This document shows positions 9,928-17,318 of a DNA stretch of 64,000 nt, piece after piece; position 1 is the stretch's first letter; each line of letters begins with the position of its first letter. Under the pieces are notes generated by a model that ran no database searches, was not told the origin of the DNA, and saw nothing but the letters and a program-made list of their open reading frames with translations. The translations under genes were made by a program, and so were the position numbers. Source of the DNA: an uncultured SAR86 cluster bacterium (lineage in GTDB: Bacteria; Pseudomonadota; Gammaproteobacteria; Magnimaribacterales; D2472); NCBI GenBank assembly GCA_902559345.1, contig CACEHH010000003.1:1316-65315 (forward strand). The letters are read 5' to 3'.

Positions 9928-10719
9928 TCATATTCTCCTTGAAGATTTTATGAATAATTCTTCGCTCTTATTTTGTATAAGCTCAACATACCCATCTTTG
10001 GCAAGCTCTAATGATGCTAACAATGTTACAACAACTCCTTTTCTACCTTCTGGTTTTATAAGGGTCTTAGAAAAACTGATCAAATCAGTGCGCGATAATA
10101 TATCTAATATGATTTGAATACGTTCTTTTGTTGATAGCTCTTCAAAATCAATTTGATGATTTGCTTTGTAATTAGGTCTATTTATAACCTCACTAATTAG
10201 GTTATACATCTCACCTTTTGTAATCTTAATTTTATTTTCTTGAACTTCTAGAGTTGGTAATTTAGCAGAGGCTGTAAAAAAATCTCTATCAATTCTTGGG
10301 AGTAATGCAATTTTCTCAGAAACATTCTTAAATCGTTGATATTCCTGCAATCTCTTTATCAAAGCTAATCTAGGATCATCTTCTTCCTCATCAAAAGATT
10401 CTGTTGGAAGCATTAATCTAGATTTAATTTCTGCTAATGTGGCCGCCATTACTAGATAGTCTGCAGCCAAATCAAATTTTAAAGAATCCATTAACTCTAT
10501 ATATTCAAGATACTGATCAGTTATTTTAGACACATCAAGATCAAGAATATTTATATTTTCTTTTTTAATTAAATATAAAAGAAGATCTAAAGGACCTGAG
10601 AATGACTCAAGACATATCTCTAAAGCATTGGGTGGAATGAAAAGATCATCTGGCAACTCTTCATATTGATACCCCATTACAGTAGGTAATTCTAATTGGG
10701 CAAGATTATTATATTGCAT
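9928..10719 (-). CDS. scpA: Segregation and condensation protein A
   Basis: 263 aa. FSGPLDLLLYLIKKENINILDLDVSKITDQYLEYI is typical of the kleisin ScpA. It lies directly upstream of scpB. Confidence 0.88.
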   Translation of the reverse strand: MQYNNLAQLELPTVMGYQYEELPDDLFIPPNALEICLESFSGPLDLLLYLIKKENINILDLDVSKITDQYLEYIELMDSLKFDLAADYLVMAATLAEIKSRLMLPTESFDEEEDDPRLALIKRLQEYQRFKNVSEKIALLPRIDRDFFTASAKLPTLEVQENKIKITKGEMYNLISEVINRPNYKANHQIDFEELSTKERIQIILDILSRTDLISFSKTLIKPEGRKGVVVTLLASLELAKDGYVELIQNKSEELFIKSSRRI

Positions 10720-10725
10720 ATATAA

Positions 10726-10739
10726 ACACTATATAGTGT
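10726..10739. promoter_or_regulatory. Perfect 14-bp palindrome ACACTATATAGTGT in the scpA / DAHP-synthase divergent spacer
   Basis: Read directly from the sequence, 7 nt upstream of the scpA start codon. No known operator consensus is matched. Confidence 0.2.
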
Positions 10740-10901
10740 AAGTTTTATCTATTTTAATACAATATATTGTGCATTTCCTTAAAAATGTAATATAAATTCA
10801 AGAATTATTAAATAATAATTTAAACTTTACTGTTTCTATTATCCTGCTTTCATTTAATAATATTCATCCTTTTTAAAATTTGGAATATAAAATATAAAGA
10901 T

Positions 10902-11951
10902 ATGAATTATTCAACTGACAATACTAGGATTATAGATAGAAGAAAAGTTCCTGCTCCATATGAACTAGTAAATAAATATCCAATTAATGATGGAATTGCA
11001 AAACTTGTATATGGAACAAGAAATCAAATCAGTCAAATACTTCATGGCAAAGATGACAGATTATTTGTTGTAGTTGGTCCCTGCTCGATCCATGATCCAG
11101 AAAGTGCTATTGAGTATGCAAATAAATTATTGGCTGTACACAAAGATTTTAGACAGAATTTACTAATAATAATGAGGGTTTACTTCGAGAAGCCAAGAAC
11201 AACTGTGGGTTGGAAAGGTTTAATAAATGATCCTGATATTAATGAAACTTACAATATTGCAAAAGGTGTCGAAATTGCACGGAAGCTTTTAATTGACATT
11301 GCTAATTTAGGCCTACCTGCCGGCACTGAATTCTTAGATCCAATATCTCCACAATATGTTACAGATATCATTTCATGGGGCGCGATCGGAGCAAGAACAG
11401 CTGAAAGCCAAATCCATAGAGAGCTTGCATCAGGATTATCTTGTCCAATTGGAATTAAAAACGGTACAGATGGGAGTTTAAAGGCAGCAATAGATGGAAT
11501 TCAAGCTGCTAATCACTCACATGTTTTTTTAGGTGCAACTAAGGAGGCTGACATTGCTATGCTTAAAACAGCAGGAAATAATGATACTCATATTATTCTT
11601 AGAGGCGGGAAAGTTCCCAACTATGATGAAGTATCAGTAGAAAACACACTCACAGCTCTTAAGGAAGCTGAAATTAATGAGACAATTATGATTGATGCAA
11701 GTCATGGAAATAGTCAAAAAAAGTTTAAACAACAAATACCTGTAATAGAATCTATTTGCAATCAGATAAGTGGTGGCAATGATAATATCAAGGGCGTGAT
11801 GATAGAAAGCCACTTAAAAGAAGGTAATCAAAAAATTAGTGATAATTTAAACTATGGGCAAAGCATTACCGATGCGTGCATGGGCTGGGAAGATACATTG
11901 CTTTGCCTCAAAAAACTTAATGAAGCTATAAATATTAAAAGAGGTAACTAA
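10902..11951 (+). CDS. aroG: 3-deoxy-7-phosphoheptulonate (DAHP) synthase, class I
   Basis: 349 aa. VVGPCSIHDP, KPRTTVGWKGLINDP, and IDASHGNS. The isozyme (Phe/Tyr/Trp-sensitive) cannot be assigned from sequence alone, so the symbol is nominal. Confidence 0.9.
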   Translation: MNYSTDNTRIIDRRKVPAPYELVNKYPINDGIAKLVYGTRNQISQILHGKDDRLFVVVGPCSIHDPESAIEYANKLLAVHKDFRQNLLIIMRVYFEKPRTTVGWKGLINDPDINETYNIAKGVEIARKLLIDIANLGLPAGTEFLDPISPQYVTDIISWGAIGARTAESQIHRELASGLSCPIGIKNGTDGSLKAAIDGIQAANHSHVFLGATKEADIAMLKTAGNNDTHIILRGGKVPNYDEVSVENTLTALKEAEINETIMIDASHGNSQKKFKQQIPVIESICNQISGGNDNIKGVMIESHLKEGNQKISDNLNYGQSITDACMGWEDTLLCLKKLNEAINIKRGN

Positions 11952-11956
11952 TTTAA

Positions 11957-12751
11957 TTGGAGAATAAAAAAAACCTATCTTTTTCAAAAGAAGTAGCAGA
12001 AACATTAGGAATAGAATGCGCAATAATATTAAATTTATTTAAAAATAATAAGTTAGGCAACATTTCTACATATGAAGATCTTCAAAATTCATTAAAAAAA
12101 GAATTATCTTTCATTGATGACACTCTCTTAAATGATTCTATAAATAAATTAATCTCCTTTAATTTAATTGATCTGGATAAAAGTGAAGCAATAATTCAGA
12201 ATAATTTCACGCCAAATAAGAATATAGAATCTAGGCAATTAGATAGTAATTGGGTTCCCTCTTCAGAAACTCTCGACATCATAAATATGGCTGAGATTAC
12301 AAATGACTTTCTAACTCTTAAATTAAAAGAATTTAAGATTTATTGGATAGAAAGAGGGCAGAAAAAAAATAATTGGAATATCTCATTTCTAAATTTCATT
12401 AGAAGAGAATGGGCGAAAGAAAATAATTCTAACAAAAGCCTTCCATACCCTATTGATGAGAAATGGCTTCCTAGTGAAGATGTTTTTGATATTTTAAATT
12501 TATCTAATATAACAAAAGATTCTGCGTTAAAATATTTAAGAGAATTTATTCTATATTGGAAAGATAATGGCGCTGCTTTCTCAACATGGAATTCTAAATT
12601 CATTGATCATGTAAAAAGAAGACATATGATTAATGATAATATAGGTAAAAATGAAAAAGATAAGAAACATTCTGAGCCAGGAAGATATTCAAAAGACTTC
12701 CAGACAAGAAAAAACGACGATAGTTGGGCAAAAGAAATCAACCTTGAGTAA
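11957..12751 (+). CDS. DnaT-like protein with two tandem DnaT-type (primosomal protein I C-terminal) domains
   Basis: 264 aa with a TTG start. Residues 96-152 and 167-222 repeat the pattern W-x-P-S...EF-x2-YW-x3-G-x5-WN-x2-F-x3-[IV]-[KR]R. That matches the E. coli DnaT segment WQPDADFIRL...[25 protein letters not shown] as I remember it. Confidence 0.5.
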   Translation: MENKKNLSFSKEVAETLGIECAIILNLFKNNKLGNISTYEDLQNSLKKELSFIDDTLLNDSINKLISFNLIDLDKSEAIIQNNFTPNKNIESRQLDSNWVPSSETLDIINMAEITNDFLTLKLKEFKIYWIERGQKKNNWNISFLNFIRREWAKENNSNKSLPYPIDEKWLPSEDVFDILNLSNITKDSALKYLREFILYWKDNGAAFSTWNSKFIDHVKRRHMINDNIGKNEKDKKHSEPGRYSKDFQTRKNDDSWAKEINLE

Positions 12752-13298
12752 ACAAGATTTTATTAGATCAATAGATTCATTATTTTTAAAGCTTGAACTA
12801 GCATATCACTATCAGTTTTATAAGGTATTTGGAACTGATGAAAAATTGAAAGAAGGTAAAAAACTATGGGCTGTAAGTTTAAAAAATGTTTCTTCAGAAG
12901 TGATACTTGAGGCCGTTGAGAATGTTATTTCATCTCAATCATACTTACCAACATTAACTGATCTTATTAAAGCTTGTAAAGACATTAATAAAAATGACGG
13001 TTTTTTATCACCAGAAGAAGCCTATCTAGAAGCAAGAAAATCCTACCAACCCAGAAAAGAATTTAATTGGACACATCCAATTATATATTTTGCTGGTAAG
13101 AAAACTGGATGGAATACACTAAATGAAAAGGATTCCAATCAAAACTTTGAAGCTTTTAAAAAAAATTATATCTCAATGAAAATGCAGGCACAGGCTGGTA
13201 AAAAATTTACTATAGAAAAAATTTTAGAAGATGAGGAAGAGTTAAAACCTTATGACAAAGACTTATTTAAAAAACTTAGAAAAAAATTCAAAGTTTAA
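12744..13298 (+). CDS. Phage lambda replication protein P-like (putative helicase-loader family)
   Basis: IDSLFLKLELAY...KKLWAVSLKNVSSEVILEAVENVISSQSYLPTLTDLIKACKD...FNWTHPIIYF is collinear with the lambda P core (INGVFSQLL...RRQWVLAF...FLPSPGQFVAWC...YPWKSNAHYW). The start was chosen as the in-frame TTG 12744, which overlaps the upstream stop (TTGAGTAA). The track's ATG 12651 would overlap the upstream gene by 101 nt. Confidence 0.5.
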   Translation: MSKQDFIRSIDSLFLKLELAYHYQFYKVFGTDEKLKEGKKLWAVSLKNVSSEVILEAVENVISSQSYLPTLTDLIKACKDINKNDGFLSPEEAYLEARKSYQPRKEFNWTHPIIYFAGKKTGWNTLNEKDSNQNFEAFKKNYISMKMQAQAGKKFTIEKILEDEEELKPYDKDLFKKLRKKFKV

Positions 13299-13320
13299 AA
13301 AATAAATTTAAAAAAATACT

Positions 13321-14199
13321 ATGAAAATAACTAAAAATATTAGGCTGTCTCTATACATTCTTATTCCAATAACCTTTTGGATGATTTCTGGATTCTTTAA
13401 AAATGAAAGAATTGACGAGCCTGATAGTCAAAATGAGTTATTCAGCGTAAAAACAATAATAAGTGAATCTATTGAATATCAGCCATTAATAAAGCTTAAG
13501 GCTACCACTAAATCTGAGGCGCGTATTGATGTTAAGGCTAAAACTTCAGGAGAAGTTGTAAGCATTGGAGCTGTTCAAGGAAAGTTTGTAAATAAAGATT
13601 CTATTTTATGCAGTCTGGGTATCGTTGAGCTTAATAGAACAGAAGTTAAAGCGCCGTTCTCTGGGTATATTGAAAAAATAGTAAAGCCAGGCAATTTTCT
13701 TGAAAGAGGTCAAGTTTGTGCAACACTTATCCAATTAAGCCCAATTGTTTTCTTAGCAGGAGTTCCTGAGTATGAAATTAATAAAGTTAAAAATGGGCAA
13801 GATGTGATACTTGAGCTGGTAACTGGAGAAATAATTAAAGGTGAATTAACTTTTGTGTCAAAAAGCGCTTCATCTGAAACTAGAACATTTAATGTTGAAT
13901 CTCAAATTAATAATGCTGATGGTTCTATCAAAGATGGTTTAACAGCAAGTATGACTATTAAGATTGATAAGGTAAAAGCGCACAAGATTTCGCCGTCTAT
14001 ATTATTGCTAAATGATGATGGTAGGCTCGGTATAAGAATTGTAGACAGCAACAGCAATGTTGAGTTTGCTGAAATAACTATATTAGAAGACTCTATAGAA
14101 GGGCTATGGGTTACCAATATCCCAGATCGAGTAGAAATCATAATTCAAGGCCAGGGATTAGTAGAAGATGGTCAAAAAGTTTTAACAAATCTTAAATGA
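13321..14199 (+). CDS. RND efflux periplasmic adaptor (membrane fusion protein)
   Basis: 292 aa. N-terminal TM anchor and lipoyl/beta-barrel-type segments (VKAKTSGEVVSI, VKAPFSGYIEKI). The stop overlaps the RND pump start. Confidence 0.8.
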   Translation: MKITKNIRLSLYILIPITFWMISGFFKNERIDEPDSQNELFSVKTIISESIEYQPLIKLKATTKSEARIDVKAKTSGEVVSIGAVQGKFVNKDSILCSLGIVELNRTEVKAPFSGYIEKIVKPGNFLERGQVCATLIQLSPIVFLAGVPEYEINKVKNGQDVILELVTGEIIKGELTFVSKSASSETRTFNVESQINNADGSIKDGLTASMTIKIDKVKAHKISPSILLLNDDGRLGIRIVDSNSNVEFAEITILEDSIEGLWVTNIPDRVEIIIQGQGLVEDGQKVLTNLK

Positions 14200-17100
14200 C
14201 AAAAATAATTGATTTTGCCATAAAAAAAGCAAAGACTACTTTGTTAATTGCTTTCATGATAGTTATTGCCGGTTCTTATGCTAGACAAGAAATTCCAGTT
14301 GCAGCATCTCCAAATGTTCAATTACCATTTATTACTGTTTCAGTTTTTCTAGATGGCGCTTCTCCAGGTGATACATCAAGACTAATTGCGAGGCCTCTTG
14401 AAAATAGATTAAAAACTGTTACTGGTGTAAAAAATATAAGATCAACAAGTTATTTAAGTTATGCAAGAATATTTCTAGAATTTGAGGTTGGTTTTGATAT
14501 AGATAAAGCTCTTGTGGATGTTAAACAAGGAGTAGAAGAAATAAAATATCAGCTACCTTTAGAGGCTGAAGACCCTCAAATTGAAGAATATACAGAGGCG
14601 AGTTTCCCTGTTATGAATATAAGTATTGTTGGAGGGAAATCAATTAGACAAAAAGTTTTTTATGCCCGCGATCTTAAGGACAGAATTGAGCCAATTGAAC
14701 AAATTCTTGAAGTAAATGTGACTGGAGCACCTGAAGAGGTTCTTGAAGGTGTTATAGATAAATCCAAAATGGAGTCCTATGGGGTTACCCTGTCTGATAT
14801 TTATAACTCTGTTTCAAACAATAACGTAATCATCCCCGGAGGTAAACAGGACACAGGACAAGGGAGTTTCAATATAGAAGTTCCTAGCATTATAGAGTCA
14901 GCTAAAGATATTTATGCTATTCCGGTAAAAGTTACAAAAGATGCAATTGTTACTCTTGGAGAGATTGCGACAGTAAAAAGAACTTTTAAAGACTTTACTT
15001 CATATGCAAGAGTTAATGGTCAAGATGCAGTTACCTTAGAAATATCATTAAGAGAAAGTGCTAATGCAATCGATGCATCTAATGCTATCAGGGAAGTCTT
15101 AGCAGACTTTCAAACAACTCTACCAAGTAATTTAGAAATTGTAATTTCAAATGACGATACAATTTATGCTAGCTTGATGGTAAAAGAGCTAAATGGAAAC
15201 ATTATTGCAGCTGTAGTGCTAATTATGGTCTTAGTGATTGCAAGCATGGGTGCTAGAGTTTCAATGCTAGTTGGTCTATCAATACCTTTTTGTTTCTTAA
15301 TGACATACTTAATTCTCTATAGTTTAGATATGGAGGTAAATTTCCTAGTAATGATGGGTCTTTTGCTTGGTATGGGGATGTTAATAGATGGTTCGATAGT
15401 CATAACTGAATTTGCTGACAAAAAGATTTCTGAAGGCTTATCGAGGTCTGAAGGTTATACTCTTGCCTCAAAGAGAATGTTCTATCCAATTCTTGCCTCT
15501 ACCGGTACAACAATGGCAGCATTTATACCGGTAATGTTTTGGCCAGGCTTTACTGGGCAATTTATGAGGTACCTACCAATAACAATTTTCTTTGTATTAT
15601 CTGCCTCATTATTTTATTCATTAATTGTTATTCCAGTTTTGGGGTCTTATTTTGGTCAAAAAAAATCAGCTCTTAATTCAGATGAAGATCATATTTCAAT
15701 ATTTACTAGGCTTACAGAATGGTATGGAAAATATATTAAACGCTTTGTTGAGAATCCAATTGAAACAGTAGTTGCGGTTGTTGCAGTTCTATTAGTTATT
15801 ATCATGAGCTATGTATATTCTGGTAAAGGAACAGTCTATTTTGCAATTGTTGATCCAGTTCAAGCAAATATAACAGTTAAAGCTAGAGGTAATTTTTCTG
15901 CACTTGAGACAAAGGAAATCATTGAAGAGGTTGAAGAACGATTTCTAAAAGTAGAGGGAATTAAAAATGTATACCTGCGATCAGGAACAAATTGGTGGCA
16001 ATCAGGAGCTGATAGGATTGGTGGTGGTTTTATTGAAACATTAGAGCCATCTCAAAGAAATATATCTGGACTAGAGATTATGGATAAACTTAAAGCTTCA
16101 ACAAGAGATCTTCCTGGAATAACAGTTGAAGTTGAAGCAGATTTAGGCGGCCCATCATTTGATTCTCCAATTGAACTAGATGTATATGGTGATACTGAAG
16201 AATCTGTAAATAATGCTGTAACTCTTATTGAAAATCATATGAGAAATGAAATGACTGGTCTCAATAACATCTTCTCTTCGAAAGCATATCCTTCTGTAGA
16301 ATGGAGCGTTGAAGTTGATAAACAAAAGGCAGCTCAATTAGGGGTAAGTGTTAGCGATGTTGGAGCATTGGTTCAAATGCTTACTAACGGTTTTAAAGTT
16401 GGAGAATATCGACCTGATGACGCTAAAGATGAAGTTGAAATTAGAGCTAGATTTCCTGATTCAGATAGAACAATAACTGGGATAAGAGATCTAAATGTGG
16501 TTACAAAGAAAGGAACAGTGCCAGTGAGCTCATTTGTAAAAGTAGTGCCAAAAGAAAATCGTCAAACTGTAAATAGAAAAAATGGTAAATATTTTCAAGA
16601 GGTTGGAGCAGGCACACAAGATGAATCTGAGGTTTCATTAAAAGTAAGTGAATTAAATAAATGGTTAAAATCAGCAGATTTAGGCTTAGGAATTTCTTTC
16701 AGTTTTGGAGGTATGGCTGAAGAAACTGAAGAAGTTAATAATTTTATGATTGTAGCTGGAATTACAGCCGTATTTATGATGCTATTAATGCTTATCACAC
16801 AATTTAATAGCTTCTATCAATCATTTATTATTCTTTCTTCAGTAACAATATCTTTTGTTGGCGTCCTTCTTGGTTTATTAATTACAGGCAAATCTTTTAG
16901 TACAACAATGACTGGCTTATCAATAGTCACATTGGCAGGAATTGTTGTTAATAATAATATTGTGCTTATTGATACCTTTAACAAGCTTAAAGAAGAATCT
17001 CCACATCTTGAGAAGTCTATTCATATTATTAATGCTTGCAAACAAAGATTAAGACCAATAGTTTTAACTTCATTAACAACAATATTTGGATTAATGCCAT

Positions 17101-17318
17101 TAGCTATGGGGATTAGCCTTGATATCATTTCAAGAGACATACTTGTTGGTAGCAGAATAGTCGATTGGTGGTCTAACTTAGCTGTTTCTATTGTTTTTGG
17201 GCTTGGTTTTAGTACATTTATTACCCTAATACTTACTCCTGCAGTTTTATCATTACCATATGCATTAAGAAATGACTTTAAAAAATACTTCCAAACTTCA
17301 TCTAATAACTTACAATAA
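14196..17318 (+). CDS. RND family efflux transporter, inner-membrane permease (AcrB/AcrD/AcrF family)
   Basis: 1040 aa with the two-fold repeated architecture of 12 TM helices plus two large periplasmic loops. No outer-membrane factor gene is adjacent. Confidence 0.92.
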   Translation: MTKIIDFAIKKAKTTLLIAFMIVIAGSYARQEIPVAASPNVQLPFITVSVFLDGASPGDTSRLIARPLENRLKTVTGVKNIRSTSYLSYARIFLEFEVGFDIDKALVDVKQGVEEIKYQLPLEAEDPQIEEYTEASFPVMNISIVGGKSIRQKVFYARDLKDRIEPIEQILEVNVTGAPEEVLEGVIDKSKMESYGVTLSDIYNSVSNNNVIIPGGKQDTGQGSFNIEVPSIIESAKDIYAIPVKVTKDAIVTLGEIATVKRTFKDFTSYARVNGQDAVTLEISLRESANAIDASNAIREVLADFQTTLPSNLEIVISNDDTIYASLMVKELNGNIIAAVVLIMVLVIASMGARVSMLVGLSIPFCFLMTYLILYSLDMEVNFLVMMGLLLGMGMLIDGSIVITEFADKKISEGLSRSEGYTLASKRMFYPILASTGTTMAAFIPVMFWPGFTGQFMRYLPITIFFVLSASLFYSLIVIPVLGSYFGQKKSALNSDEDHISIFTRLTEWYGKYIKRFVENPIETVVAVVAVLLVIIMSYVYSGKGTVYFAIVDPVQANITVKARGNFSALETKEIIEEVEERFLKVEGIKNVYLRSGTNWWQSGADRIGGGFIETLEPSQRNISGLEIMDKLKASTRDLPGITVEVEADLGGPSFDSPIELDVYGDTEESVNNAVTLIENHMRNEMTGLNNIFSSKAYPSVEWSVEVDKQKAAQLGVSVSDVGALVQMLTNGFKVGEYRPDDAKDEVEIRARFPDSDRTITGIRDLNVVTKKGTVPVSSFVKVVPKENRQTVNRKNGKYFQEVGAGTQDESEVSLKVSELNKWLKSADLGLGISFSFGGMAEETEEVNNFMIVAGITAVFMMLLMLITQFNSFYQSFIILSSVTISFVGVLLGLLITGKSFSTTMTGLSIVTLAGIVVNNNIVLIDTFNKLKEESPHLEKSIHIINACKQRLRPIVLTSLTTIFGLMPLAMGISLDIISRDILVGSRIVDWWSNLAVSIVFGLGFSTFITLILTPAVLSLPYALRNDFKKYFQTSSNNLQ

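Follow-up and report, generated by a model that had tools for sequence, protein, structure and literature searches.

Two adjacent genes on the forward strand of a 64,000-nucleotide (nt) stretch of DNA from an uncultured SAR86 cluster bacterium (GenBank assembly GCA_902559345.1, contig CACEHH010000003.1, positions 1,316 to 65,315; the whole stretch is called the window below) encode a protein with tandem DnaT-type domains and a protein resembling replication protein P of phage lambda. Judged from sequence and fold, they are the SAR86-cluster orthologues of dopC and dopE, described in 2017 in Cellvibrionales and in dciA-less Oceanospirillales as domesticated phage replication genes (PMC5509034). 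In that work DopE was proposed to be a third type of helicase loader, loading DnaB in lineages without DciA, and in the published genomes the presence of dopE coincides exactly with the absence of dciA and dnaC/I (PMC5509034). The original prediction, made from the window alone, had seen in the two genes an orphan pair with an open role. They belong instead to this published system, with a proposed role in place of DciA, and are already annotated in NCBI, under the labels 'DnaT-like ssDNA-binding domain-containing protein' (ssDNA, single-stranded DNA) and 'replication protein P'. The features of the locus are collected in Table 1.

Table 1. Features at and around the dopC-dopE locus, in window coordinates (aa, amino acids; AF2, AlphaFold2 model; wHTH, winged helix-turn-helix; RND, resistance-nodulation-division; DAHP, 3-deoxy-D-arabino-heptulosonate 7-phosphate).
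Feature	Position	Strand	Description
dopC	11957..12751	+	TTG start, 264 aa; PF17948 twice; N-terminal helical (O-like/wHTH-like) domain, two repeats, tail
DopC N-terminal four-helix domain	11984..12157	+	residues ~10-67; AF2 helices 11-17, 19-29, 39-49, 55-67
DnaT-type repeat 1	12242..12427	+	residues 96-157, three-helix unit (AF2 from residue 93); Pfam, BLASTP, AF2, Foldseek
DnaT-type repeat 2	12455..12640	+	residues 167-228 (AF2 from residue 164); Pfam, BLASTP, alignment, AF2, Foldseek
DopC C-terminal tail	12650..12748	+	residues 232-264; invariant alignment columns; predicted disordered
Probable 101-nt dual-coding overlap	12651..12751	+	dopC frame 1, dopE frame 2
dopE	12651..13298	+	probable form 215 aa from ATG 12651; alternative 184 aa from TTG 12744
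DopE conserved C-terminal amphipathic helix	13257..13286	+	invariant L174, L178, R179, K181, V184; predicted helix 172-181 (numbering of the 184-aa form)
aroG (DAHP synthase)	10902..11951	+	PF00793 in syntenic loci; constant upstream neighbour
RND efflux pair	13321..17318	+	PF25954, PF00873 in syntenic loci; constant downstream neighbour

DopC carries two DnaT-type repeats

The Pfam family PF17948 ('DnaT DNA-binding domain') matches DopC twice (E = 4.1e-34, 116.6 bits against a cut-off of 25). The two copies, at residues 96-152 and 167-222 (nt 12242-12412 and 12455-12622), are spaced by 213 nt, or 71 aa, and are 37% identical to each other (BLASTP, E = 3e-14); their coordinates and sequences agree with those given in the original prediction. 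The repetition is also detectable in the DNA, as an echo at 213-nt spacing. Repeat 2 is the best conserved part of the protein (YLREFILYWKDNGAAFTTWNSKFIDHVKRRH), with the best Pfam stretch at residues 165-222. The repeats also give a match to PHROG 1032 ('replication initiation protein'; 5.6e-9).

Fold comparison points in the same direction. The AF2 model of DopC has a predicted local distance difference test score (pLDDT) of 71, and its four top Foldseek matches are the DnaT84-153/ssDNA structure (4OU6) and Salmonella DnaT (6AEQ), with probabilities of 0.90-0.96 and target TM-scores of 0.53-0.56. A profile of 24 DopC homologues aligned with E. coli DnaT (PDB 4OU6/4OU7) in the correct register at E~0.5 only. 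The resemblance to the ssDNA-binding region of E. coli DnaT that had been claimed thus stands at the level of domain family and fold, and the direct sequence link is remote. Single-sequence phmmer searches of DopC and DopE against PDB sequences gave chance-level matches only. Because phmmer and profile searches fall short, the two sequences alone do not reach solved structures, which were reached through Pfam, PHROG and fold comparison. No NCBIfam model matched DopC or DopE meaningfully, the single DopC match at E≤1 being an unrelated lipoprotein family far below its cut-off.

Homologues of DopC are numerous: 484 are full-length, and an exhaustive search of representatives with the window protein returned 439 relatives. 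Upstream of the repeats, the N-terminal domain has the motif LSFSKEVAETLG.E.AIIL ... F.D ... KLI.F.LI and is followed by a variable, disordered linker (residues 75-91). The C-terminal tail is strongly conserved (consensus NE..KK.SEPG.Y..DF..RK.D.SWA.EI) and is retained in homologues of other orders that have three or four repeats, with alignments running to query residue ~259; residues 228-244 have a pLDDT below 50.

Some DopC genes depart from this plan. In two SAR86 metagenome-assembled genomes (MAGs), dopC is split into two open reading frames (ORFs; locus L067, 5150-5990) or truncated to 200 aa (L041, 5403-6002). These are probably frameshift or assembly errors and not pseudogenes, because dopE and all neighbouring genes are intact. 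In a Spongiibacteraceae MAG (JAUXHA010000033.1; L082, 5400-5981), the ORF before dopE is only 193 aa long, is devoid of the N-terminal domain, and consists of two degenerate DnaT-like repeats and the conserved tail (..DRSWADDL). In some lineages the O-like domain may be dispensable for DopC, unless the start of this gene was mis-assembled. Finally, MCS5548640.1 (P0434/P0247, 363 aa), labelled 'SAR86 cluster bacterium', has three DnaT repeats and 34% identity to window DopC. Either a three-repeat DopC is kept in some SAR86-labelled lineages or the label is loose.

DopE belongs to the lambda P family

With 28.3 bits (E = 1.7e-6; cut-off 26 bits), DopE matches PF06992 Phage_lambda_P ('Replication protein P') along profile positions 3-159 of 162, and PHROG 109 'P-like helicase loader' gives a clearer match (8.4e-14). 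Its AF2 model is of low confidence (pLDDT 60); the top five PDB matches by Foldseek are all lambda P chains in DnaB complexes (9OA1/9OA2; best E = 9e-4). The second ORF is lambda-P-like, as had been proposed, and profile matches to both families, DnaT-domain and Replication protein P, are significant. DopE also aligns end to end with its counterparts in Teredinibacter turnerae and Spongiibacter (30-32% identity, E = 8e-33 and 2e-33), including the C-terminal ..LR.K.. helix.

In lambda P, a C-terminal lasso helix binds DnaB at the DH-LH (docking helix-linker helix) site and opens the ring (PMC12661323). The DopE helix, in which L178 and R179 are conserved in Teredinibacter and Spongiibacter too, may be equivalent to the lambda P lasso.

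A DopE profile searched against the PDB did not recover lambda P. Its best PDB sequence match was the helicase loader G39P of phage SPP1 (1NO1, E = 0.31), and Pfam Inhibitor_G39P gave E = 0.15. The two matches fall around a conserved segment, ..LPTLTDL.KAC.., at residues ~24-75 of the 184-aa form (window ~12813-12968), and may reflect a distant kinship of P-like and G39P-like loaders.

The two genes probably share a dual-coding segment

The start of dopE is called differently by different gene callers, giving forms of 184, 193-197 and 214-215 aa. The original prediction had coupled the two genes through a TTG at 12744. The short overlap with the dopC stop codon is present (TTGAGTAA, 12744-12751), and the coupling is tight; the TTG start itself is doubtful. 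Gene calls for most SAR86 relatives begin at an ATG or GTG 10 codons upstream of this TTG (193-197 aa), where the window has ACG. An ATG 31 codons upstream of the TTG, at 12651 in the window, is found in essentially all SAR86 loci, and MKKIRNILSQEDIQK... are the dopE-frame residues encoded by 12651-12743.

Two signals, seen in the window and in loci L001-L004 and L007-L078, bear on this choice. In 68 of 68 distinct dopC sequences, no stop interrupts the dopE frame over at least the 32 codons that precede the dopC stop, compared with 0.085 stops per codon for the same frame elsewhere in dopC. In addition, dopC shows a drop in third-codon-position entropy, from 0.92 to 0.45, over codons 232-253 (Mann-Whitney p=1.7e-5). 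These codons overlap dopE only if it starts at the distal ATG, so the drop favours ATG 12651 over TTG 12744. The simplest reading is therefore that dopE probably starts at 12651, encodes 215 aa and shares a conserved dual-coding segment of ~101 nt with dopC. An alternative for the reduced dopC variation is a constraint at the RNA level, for example an internal ribosome-binding region. Under either reading of the overlap, dopC and dopE are tightly coupled.

The pair is a resident and constrained part of SAR86 genomes

One genome per GTDB species was scanned with the DopE alignment, which gave 201 loci, and the best 80 were examined. Within these 80, about 70 are from SAR86-cluster single amplified genomes and MAGs (56-75% identity). 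Next in identity are three deeper gammaproteobacterial MAGs (40-42%), and after them MAGs of Oleispira, Spongiibacteraceae, Cellvibrionales and Pseudomonadales at 34-38%. One further window gene, at 33 kb, has an identical counterpart in the assembly of a SAR86 single amplified genome (GCA_902559295.1). The gene order rluB-scpB-scpA / aroG-dopC-dopE-MFP-RND (MFP, membrane-fusion protein) was found in all SAR86-type loci long enough to show it (about 75), on contigs of up to 1.3 Mb, and the two genes sit next to each other or overlap in every complete locus, the window included. SAR86-type loci without exception encode a two-repeat DopC, whereas in non-SAR86 loci, which have other contexts, the protein has three or four repeats. 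Compared with the window proteins, DopC has a median identity of 56% and DopE of 64%; among the flanking genes, the value ranges from 68% (rluB) to 82% (aroG). The ratio of nonsynonymous to synonymous substitutions (dN/dS) is 0.11 for dopC and 0.084 for dopE, versus 0.03-0.07 for five neighbours (pairwise Nei-Gojobori, 43 moderately diverged pairs), which indicates purifying selection on both genes.

The surroundings of the pair are those of a chromosome. No phage gene, integrase included, lies within +/-10 kb, in line with the original prediction, which had noted the lack of integrase, structural and lysis genes. The flanking DAHP synthase and RND pump that it had named are borne out by Pfam matches in the syntenic loci. 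The rest of the window is housekeeping (gyrA, pntAB, rib genes, glyA, purA and PBP1a, among others). A tblastn search with SAR86 DopC against 50,697 phage genomes gave no match. DopC and DopE alignments found no confirmed relative in IMG/VR, with patterns that were SAR86- or DopE-specific and do not exclude distant viral relatives. P-like loaders of cultured phages are only 24-26% identical to DopE, over 74% of its length.

Could the locus be a decaying prophage remnant, or a cryptic secondary origin composed of an O-like initiator with an internal ori and its loader? Both proteins have a phage pedigree, and G+C is slightly lower over the pair (27% in the 1-kb bin that covers it versus ~31-35% in adjoining bins; the window is AT-rich, with about 32% G+C). 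Against this, about 75 species-level SAR86-type genomes have the genes in the same position and with undamaged ORFs, even where identity is as low as ~40%. Moreover, the region 10700-13400 has no iterons and no tandem arrays, and DnaA-box-like sites in the window number 20, versus 21.4 expected, and form no cluster, so dopC is not an origin. Together with dN/dS values of ~0.1 and the missing phage genes, these results effectively refute a remnant or cryptic origin. They fit the domesticated phage replication module of the original prediction. In relatives, the pair is not confined to prophages but sits in resident synteny.

The same data bear on a possible anti-phage device, in which the P-like protein, as a decoy or exclusion factor, would either sit on DnaB or vie with the loaders of incoming phages and so keep lambdoid phages from hijacking the host helicase. 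This idea had been put forward in the original prediction, and Brezellec et al. speculate that a domesticated loader may incidentally hinder some phages (PMC5509034). Defence genes are, however, typically patchy, island-borne and fast-evolving, whereas dopCE is present as a single copy at a constant, syntenic position in all SAR86 species examined, and its dN/dS values resemble those of housekeeping genes. PADLOC matched neither DopC nor DopE. We regard a dedicated defence role as highly improbable.

On the chromosome, aroG, dopC, dopE and the RND pair (10902-17318) are tightly packed, with gaps of 5 nt and 22 nt plus two overlaps. The 5 nt separate the aroG stop from the dopC start, and aroG lies upstream of dopC in every SAR86-type locus of sufficient length. 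The 22 nt separate dopE from the RND pair (membrane-fusion protein at 13321-14199, pump at 14196-17318). No terminator-like site was found in 10600-14300, i.e. none between aroG and the RND genes, and promoter-like matches in the aroG-RND region are fewer than expected by chance. These two results suggest that dopC and dopE are co-transcribed with their neighbours, which would be the usual arrangement for a streamlined genome. Throughout SAR86, a replication module thus seems to share its transcript with a gene of amino-acid biosynthesis and with an efflux pump.

On six long SAR86 contigs (0.84-1.3 Mb; L001, L037, L051, L062, L067 and L070), dopCE lies about 1-50 kb from the end of the record. 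This may reflect an assembly break point rather than proximity to oriC; L001 ends inside housekeeping genes.

Comparison with DopC/DopE of other lineages

The window pair has every testable defining feature of DopC/DopE except a direct O-like signature, for which the support is transitive. Window DopC matches a 384-aa protein of Spongiibacter pelagi (P0260) with E = 1.5e-42, and a search with that protein leads to named relatives in Spongiibacter, Zhongshania, Litorivivens, Pseudohongiella and Teredinibacter turnerae. On T. turnerae and Spongiibacter contigs, the DnaT-domain gene is directly followed by a PF06992 gene of 190-202 aa, and in Oleispira too a DnaT-domain gene directly precedes a PF06992 gene. 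Shared with the published system (PMC5509034) are the gene order and strand, with genes that overlap or nearly abut; a DopE of ~190-215 aa that belongs to PF06992 and aligns from end to end; a DopC built from a homologous N-terminal domain, DnaT repeats and a C-terminal tail; and a resident rather than prophage context, at a locus without iterons.

The differences concern host and architecture. SAR86 lies outside the coverage of the 2017 paper. SAR86 DopC has two DnaT repeats, whereas 109 of 116 sampled proteins of other lineages have three and the remaining 7, T. turnerae DopC among them, have four; the window protein is accordingly shorter, 264 aa versus 370-445 aa. The aroG/RND context of SAR86 is replaced by others in Cellvibrionales and Oceanospirillales. 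The two genes probably overlap by ~101 nt in SAR86, compared with 38 nt in T. turnerae and none in Spongiibacter.

The N-terminal domain of DopC may derive from a phage O-type initiator

DopC N-termini have been described as lambda-O-like, with HTH_36 detected by HHpred (PMC5509034). In our hands, the link is made in two steps. The SAR86 N-terminus aligns with Cellvibrionales-type DopC N-termini (hhalign probability 95%, E = 3.8e-8), and the Spongiibacter DopC N-terminus is 35-38% identical to lambdoid phage 'replication protein O-like' over 81 residues (tblastn, E = 4e-5 to 6e-6). Directly, the SAR86 N-terminal profile matches one phage O-like protein weakly, in the same register (E = 0.029). 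With hhalign, neither PAJU2 gp63 nor Marinomonas phage gp37, both initiators, gave a significant match (range for phage O-like proteins, E = 0.029-0.8). Pfam detected neither HTH_36 nor Phage_rep_O (PF04492) in DopC at E≤1, while PF04492 was found in PAJU2 gp63, used as a control, and wHTH matches by Foldseek are weak. An O-type ancestry of the DopC N-terminus is therefore supported transitively, not directly. The original prediction had found no O-type initiator nearby, and this no longer holds: the DnaT-domain protein itself appears to be the O-derived partner.

A gene of Escherichia phage mEp460_ev081 (LR597641.1, 31980-32945; L091, 2501-3466, also L092) may be mentioned beside DopC. It encodes 321 aa and occupies the lambda O position after cII; its annotation differs between the two records, 'Primosomal protein I' versus 'replication initiation O-like protein'. 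The N-terminus of its product is 38% identical to that of Spongiibacter DopC. A Ren-like gene comes next and there is no P gene; no Pfam DnaT domain is found at E≤0.1.

Relation to lambda O/P, E. coli DnaT and other helicase loaders

As in lambda O/P, an initiator-type gene precedes a P-type loader gene, DopE matches lambda P in profile and fold, and the DopC N-terminus has a transitive link to lambdoid O-like initiators. Unlike lambda O/P, the window pair has no phage context and no ori iterons in its first gene; PF04492 and Phg_2220_C are undetected in DopC, where DnaT repeats replace the C-terminal domain of O; and the identity of DopE to phage P-like proteins stays at 24-26%. Lacking PF04492, iterons and a phage context, the pair is not a lambda O/P module.

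With E. coli DnaT, DopC shares the three-helix ssDNA-binding domain PF17948 and an operon with a DnaB loader. E. coli DnaT, however, oligomerises from chains with a single copy each, whereas each DopC chain has two copies and an unrelated N-terminal domain, and its partner is P-like in place of the AAA+ protein DnaC. The ~180-aa single-domain architecture encoded beside dnaC in E. coli is not that of DopC. In view of its two repeats, its different N-terminus, its P-like partner and the lack of a meaningful NCBIfam match, DopC is not a DnaT orthologue.

VdhL1/VdhL2 of Vibrionaceae (PMC11087808) and DnaC/DnaI follow the same theme, in which a phage-derived loader replaces DciA, often with an O-like companion. 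The families differ: VdhL is weakly related to PF06992, and DnaC/DnaI are AAA+ ATPases.

Proposed role in helicase loading

We propose, with a probability of about 0.7, that dopC and dopE descend from a lambdoid O-type initiator and a P-type loader that were domesticated and have since been inherited vertically as a core module standing in for DciA or DnaC. Domestication would have taken place in an ancestor of Cellvibrionales, part of Oceanospirillales, and SAR86. The identity of the two genes, their orthology, their residency and the purifying selection on them are results of the present analysis. The helicase-loading mechanism that we infer for the module draws on the lambda P and E. coli DnaT literature and on the 2017 proposal. 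DopE would attach to the DnaB hexamer of the host and open the ring in the manner of lambda P, the contact probably being made by the conserved C-terminal helix of DopE at the DH-LH site. DopC would no longer be an origin-binding initiator, since its locus lacks iterons. In E. coli, the DnaT domain forms an oligomer on ssDNA (PDB 4OU6 title), and the two DnaT-type repeats of DopC may likewise hold single-stranded DNA, while its tail, its N-terminal domain or both would hold DopE or DnaB. DopC could then deliver DopE-DnaB to DnaA-opened oriC, and possibly also to stalled forks processed by PriA. The two proteins would probably be made in fixed proportion from one mRNA, with dopE read from ATG 12651 within the 3' end of dopC. 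In this way the module would substitute for DciA or DnaC.

Several points weigh against this proposal. The PF06992 score of DopE is just 2 bits over the cut-off, and its model has a pLDDT of only 60. The link between the DopC N-terminus and phage O is transitive, with HTH_36 and Phage_rep_O undetected directly by Pfam. Binding of ssDNA by the repeats, as well as DopC-DopE and DopE-DnaB contacts, are predicted. The absence of dciA, dnaC and dnaI behind the 2017 proposal is known from published genomes, SAR86 not among them, and no paper in the searchable literature connects SAR86 with DciA. Nor does that literature hold an experiment on any DopC or DopE, and later papers cite DopE just as 'suggested'.

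A narrower role has to be weighed as well: the pair could serve restart only, reloading DnaB at stalled forks or D-loops as PriA-PriB-DnaT-DnaC does, with oriC served by another loader (DciA or an unrecognised one). Among proteins with this domain, only E. coli DnaT has been characterised; it acts in restart, and the DnaT fold tops the structural matches of DopC. Brezellec et al. themselves raised this role for DopC (PMC5509034). However, lambda P is an origin loader, and the exact mirroring of dopE by the lack of dciA and dnaC/I in published genomes (PMC5509034) argues for more than restart. Furthermore, both genes are retained and strongly constrained in a streamlined genome of ~1.2-1.3 Mb, which fits an essential role better than an accessory one. 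An exclusive restart function is thus unlikely. Restart and initiation are mutually compatible, and of the roles first suggested, the pair may act as a restart adaptor, whereas the anti-phage decoy finds no support (no PADLOC match).

Significance for SAR86 and for helicase loading

The pair is a real conserved module and not a new kind of system, with a loader function deduced by comparison. Relative to the 2017 description (PMC5509034), what we add is modestly new: the SAR86 host range, a two-repeat DopC, the 2-4-fold tandem repetition of the DnaT domain, a different fixed genomic context and, likely, a long dual-coding overlap.

More tentatively, SAR86 may be without DciA and DnaC and wholly reliant on a minimal phage-derived loader. 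In this loader, the two-repeat DopC would be the single-chain equivalent of a DnaT oligomer on ssDNA, and DopE would be translated from an ATG 101 nt inside dopC, both proteins drawing on the conserved dual-coding segment. We hold this at somewhat less than even odds. If true, SAR86 would carry the smallest natural form of the third bacterial helicase-loading system, and the dopC/dopE overlap would act as a built-in stoichiometry control.

How helicases are loaded in bacteria without DciA, DnaC and DnaI is only partly answered, and DopCE is a proposed third solution. DopC tolerates reduction to two DnaT repeats, which should help in designing a minimal biochemical construct, and its conserved tail and N-terminal domain, together with the long dopC/dopE overlap, offer concrete points for testing. 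Fixed and strongly constrained across SAR86, dopCE extends this proposed system to a globally abundant, genome-streamlined lineage of the surface ocean.

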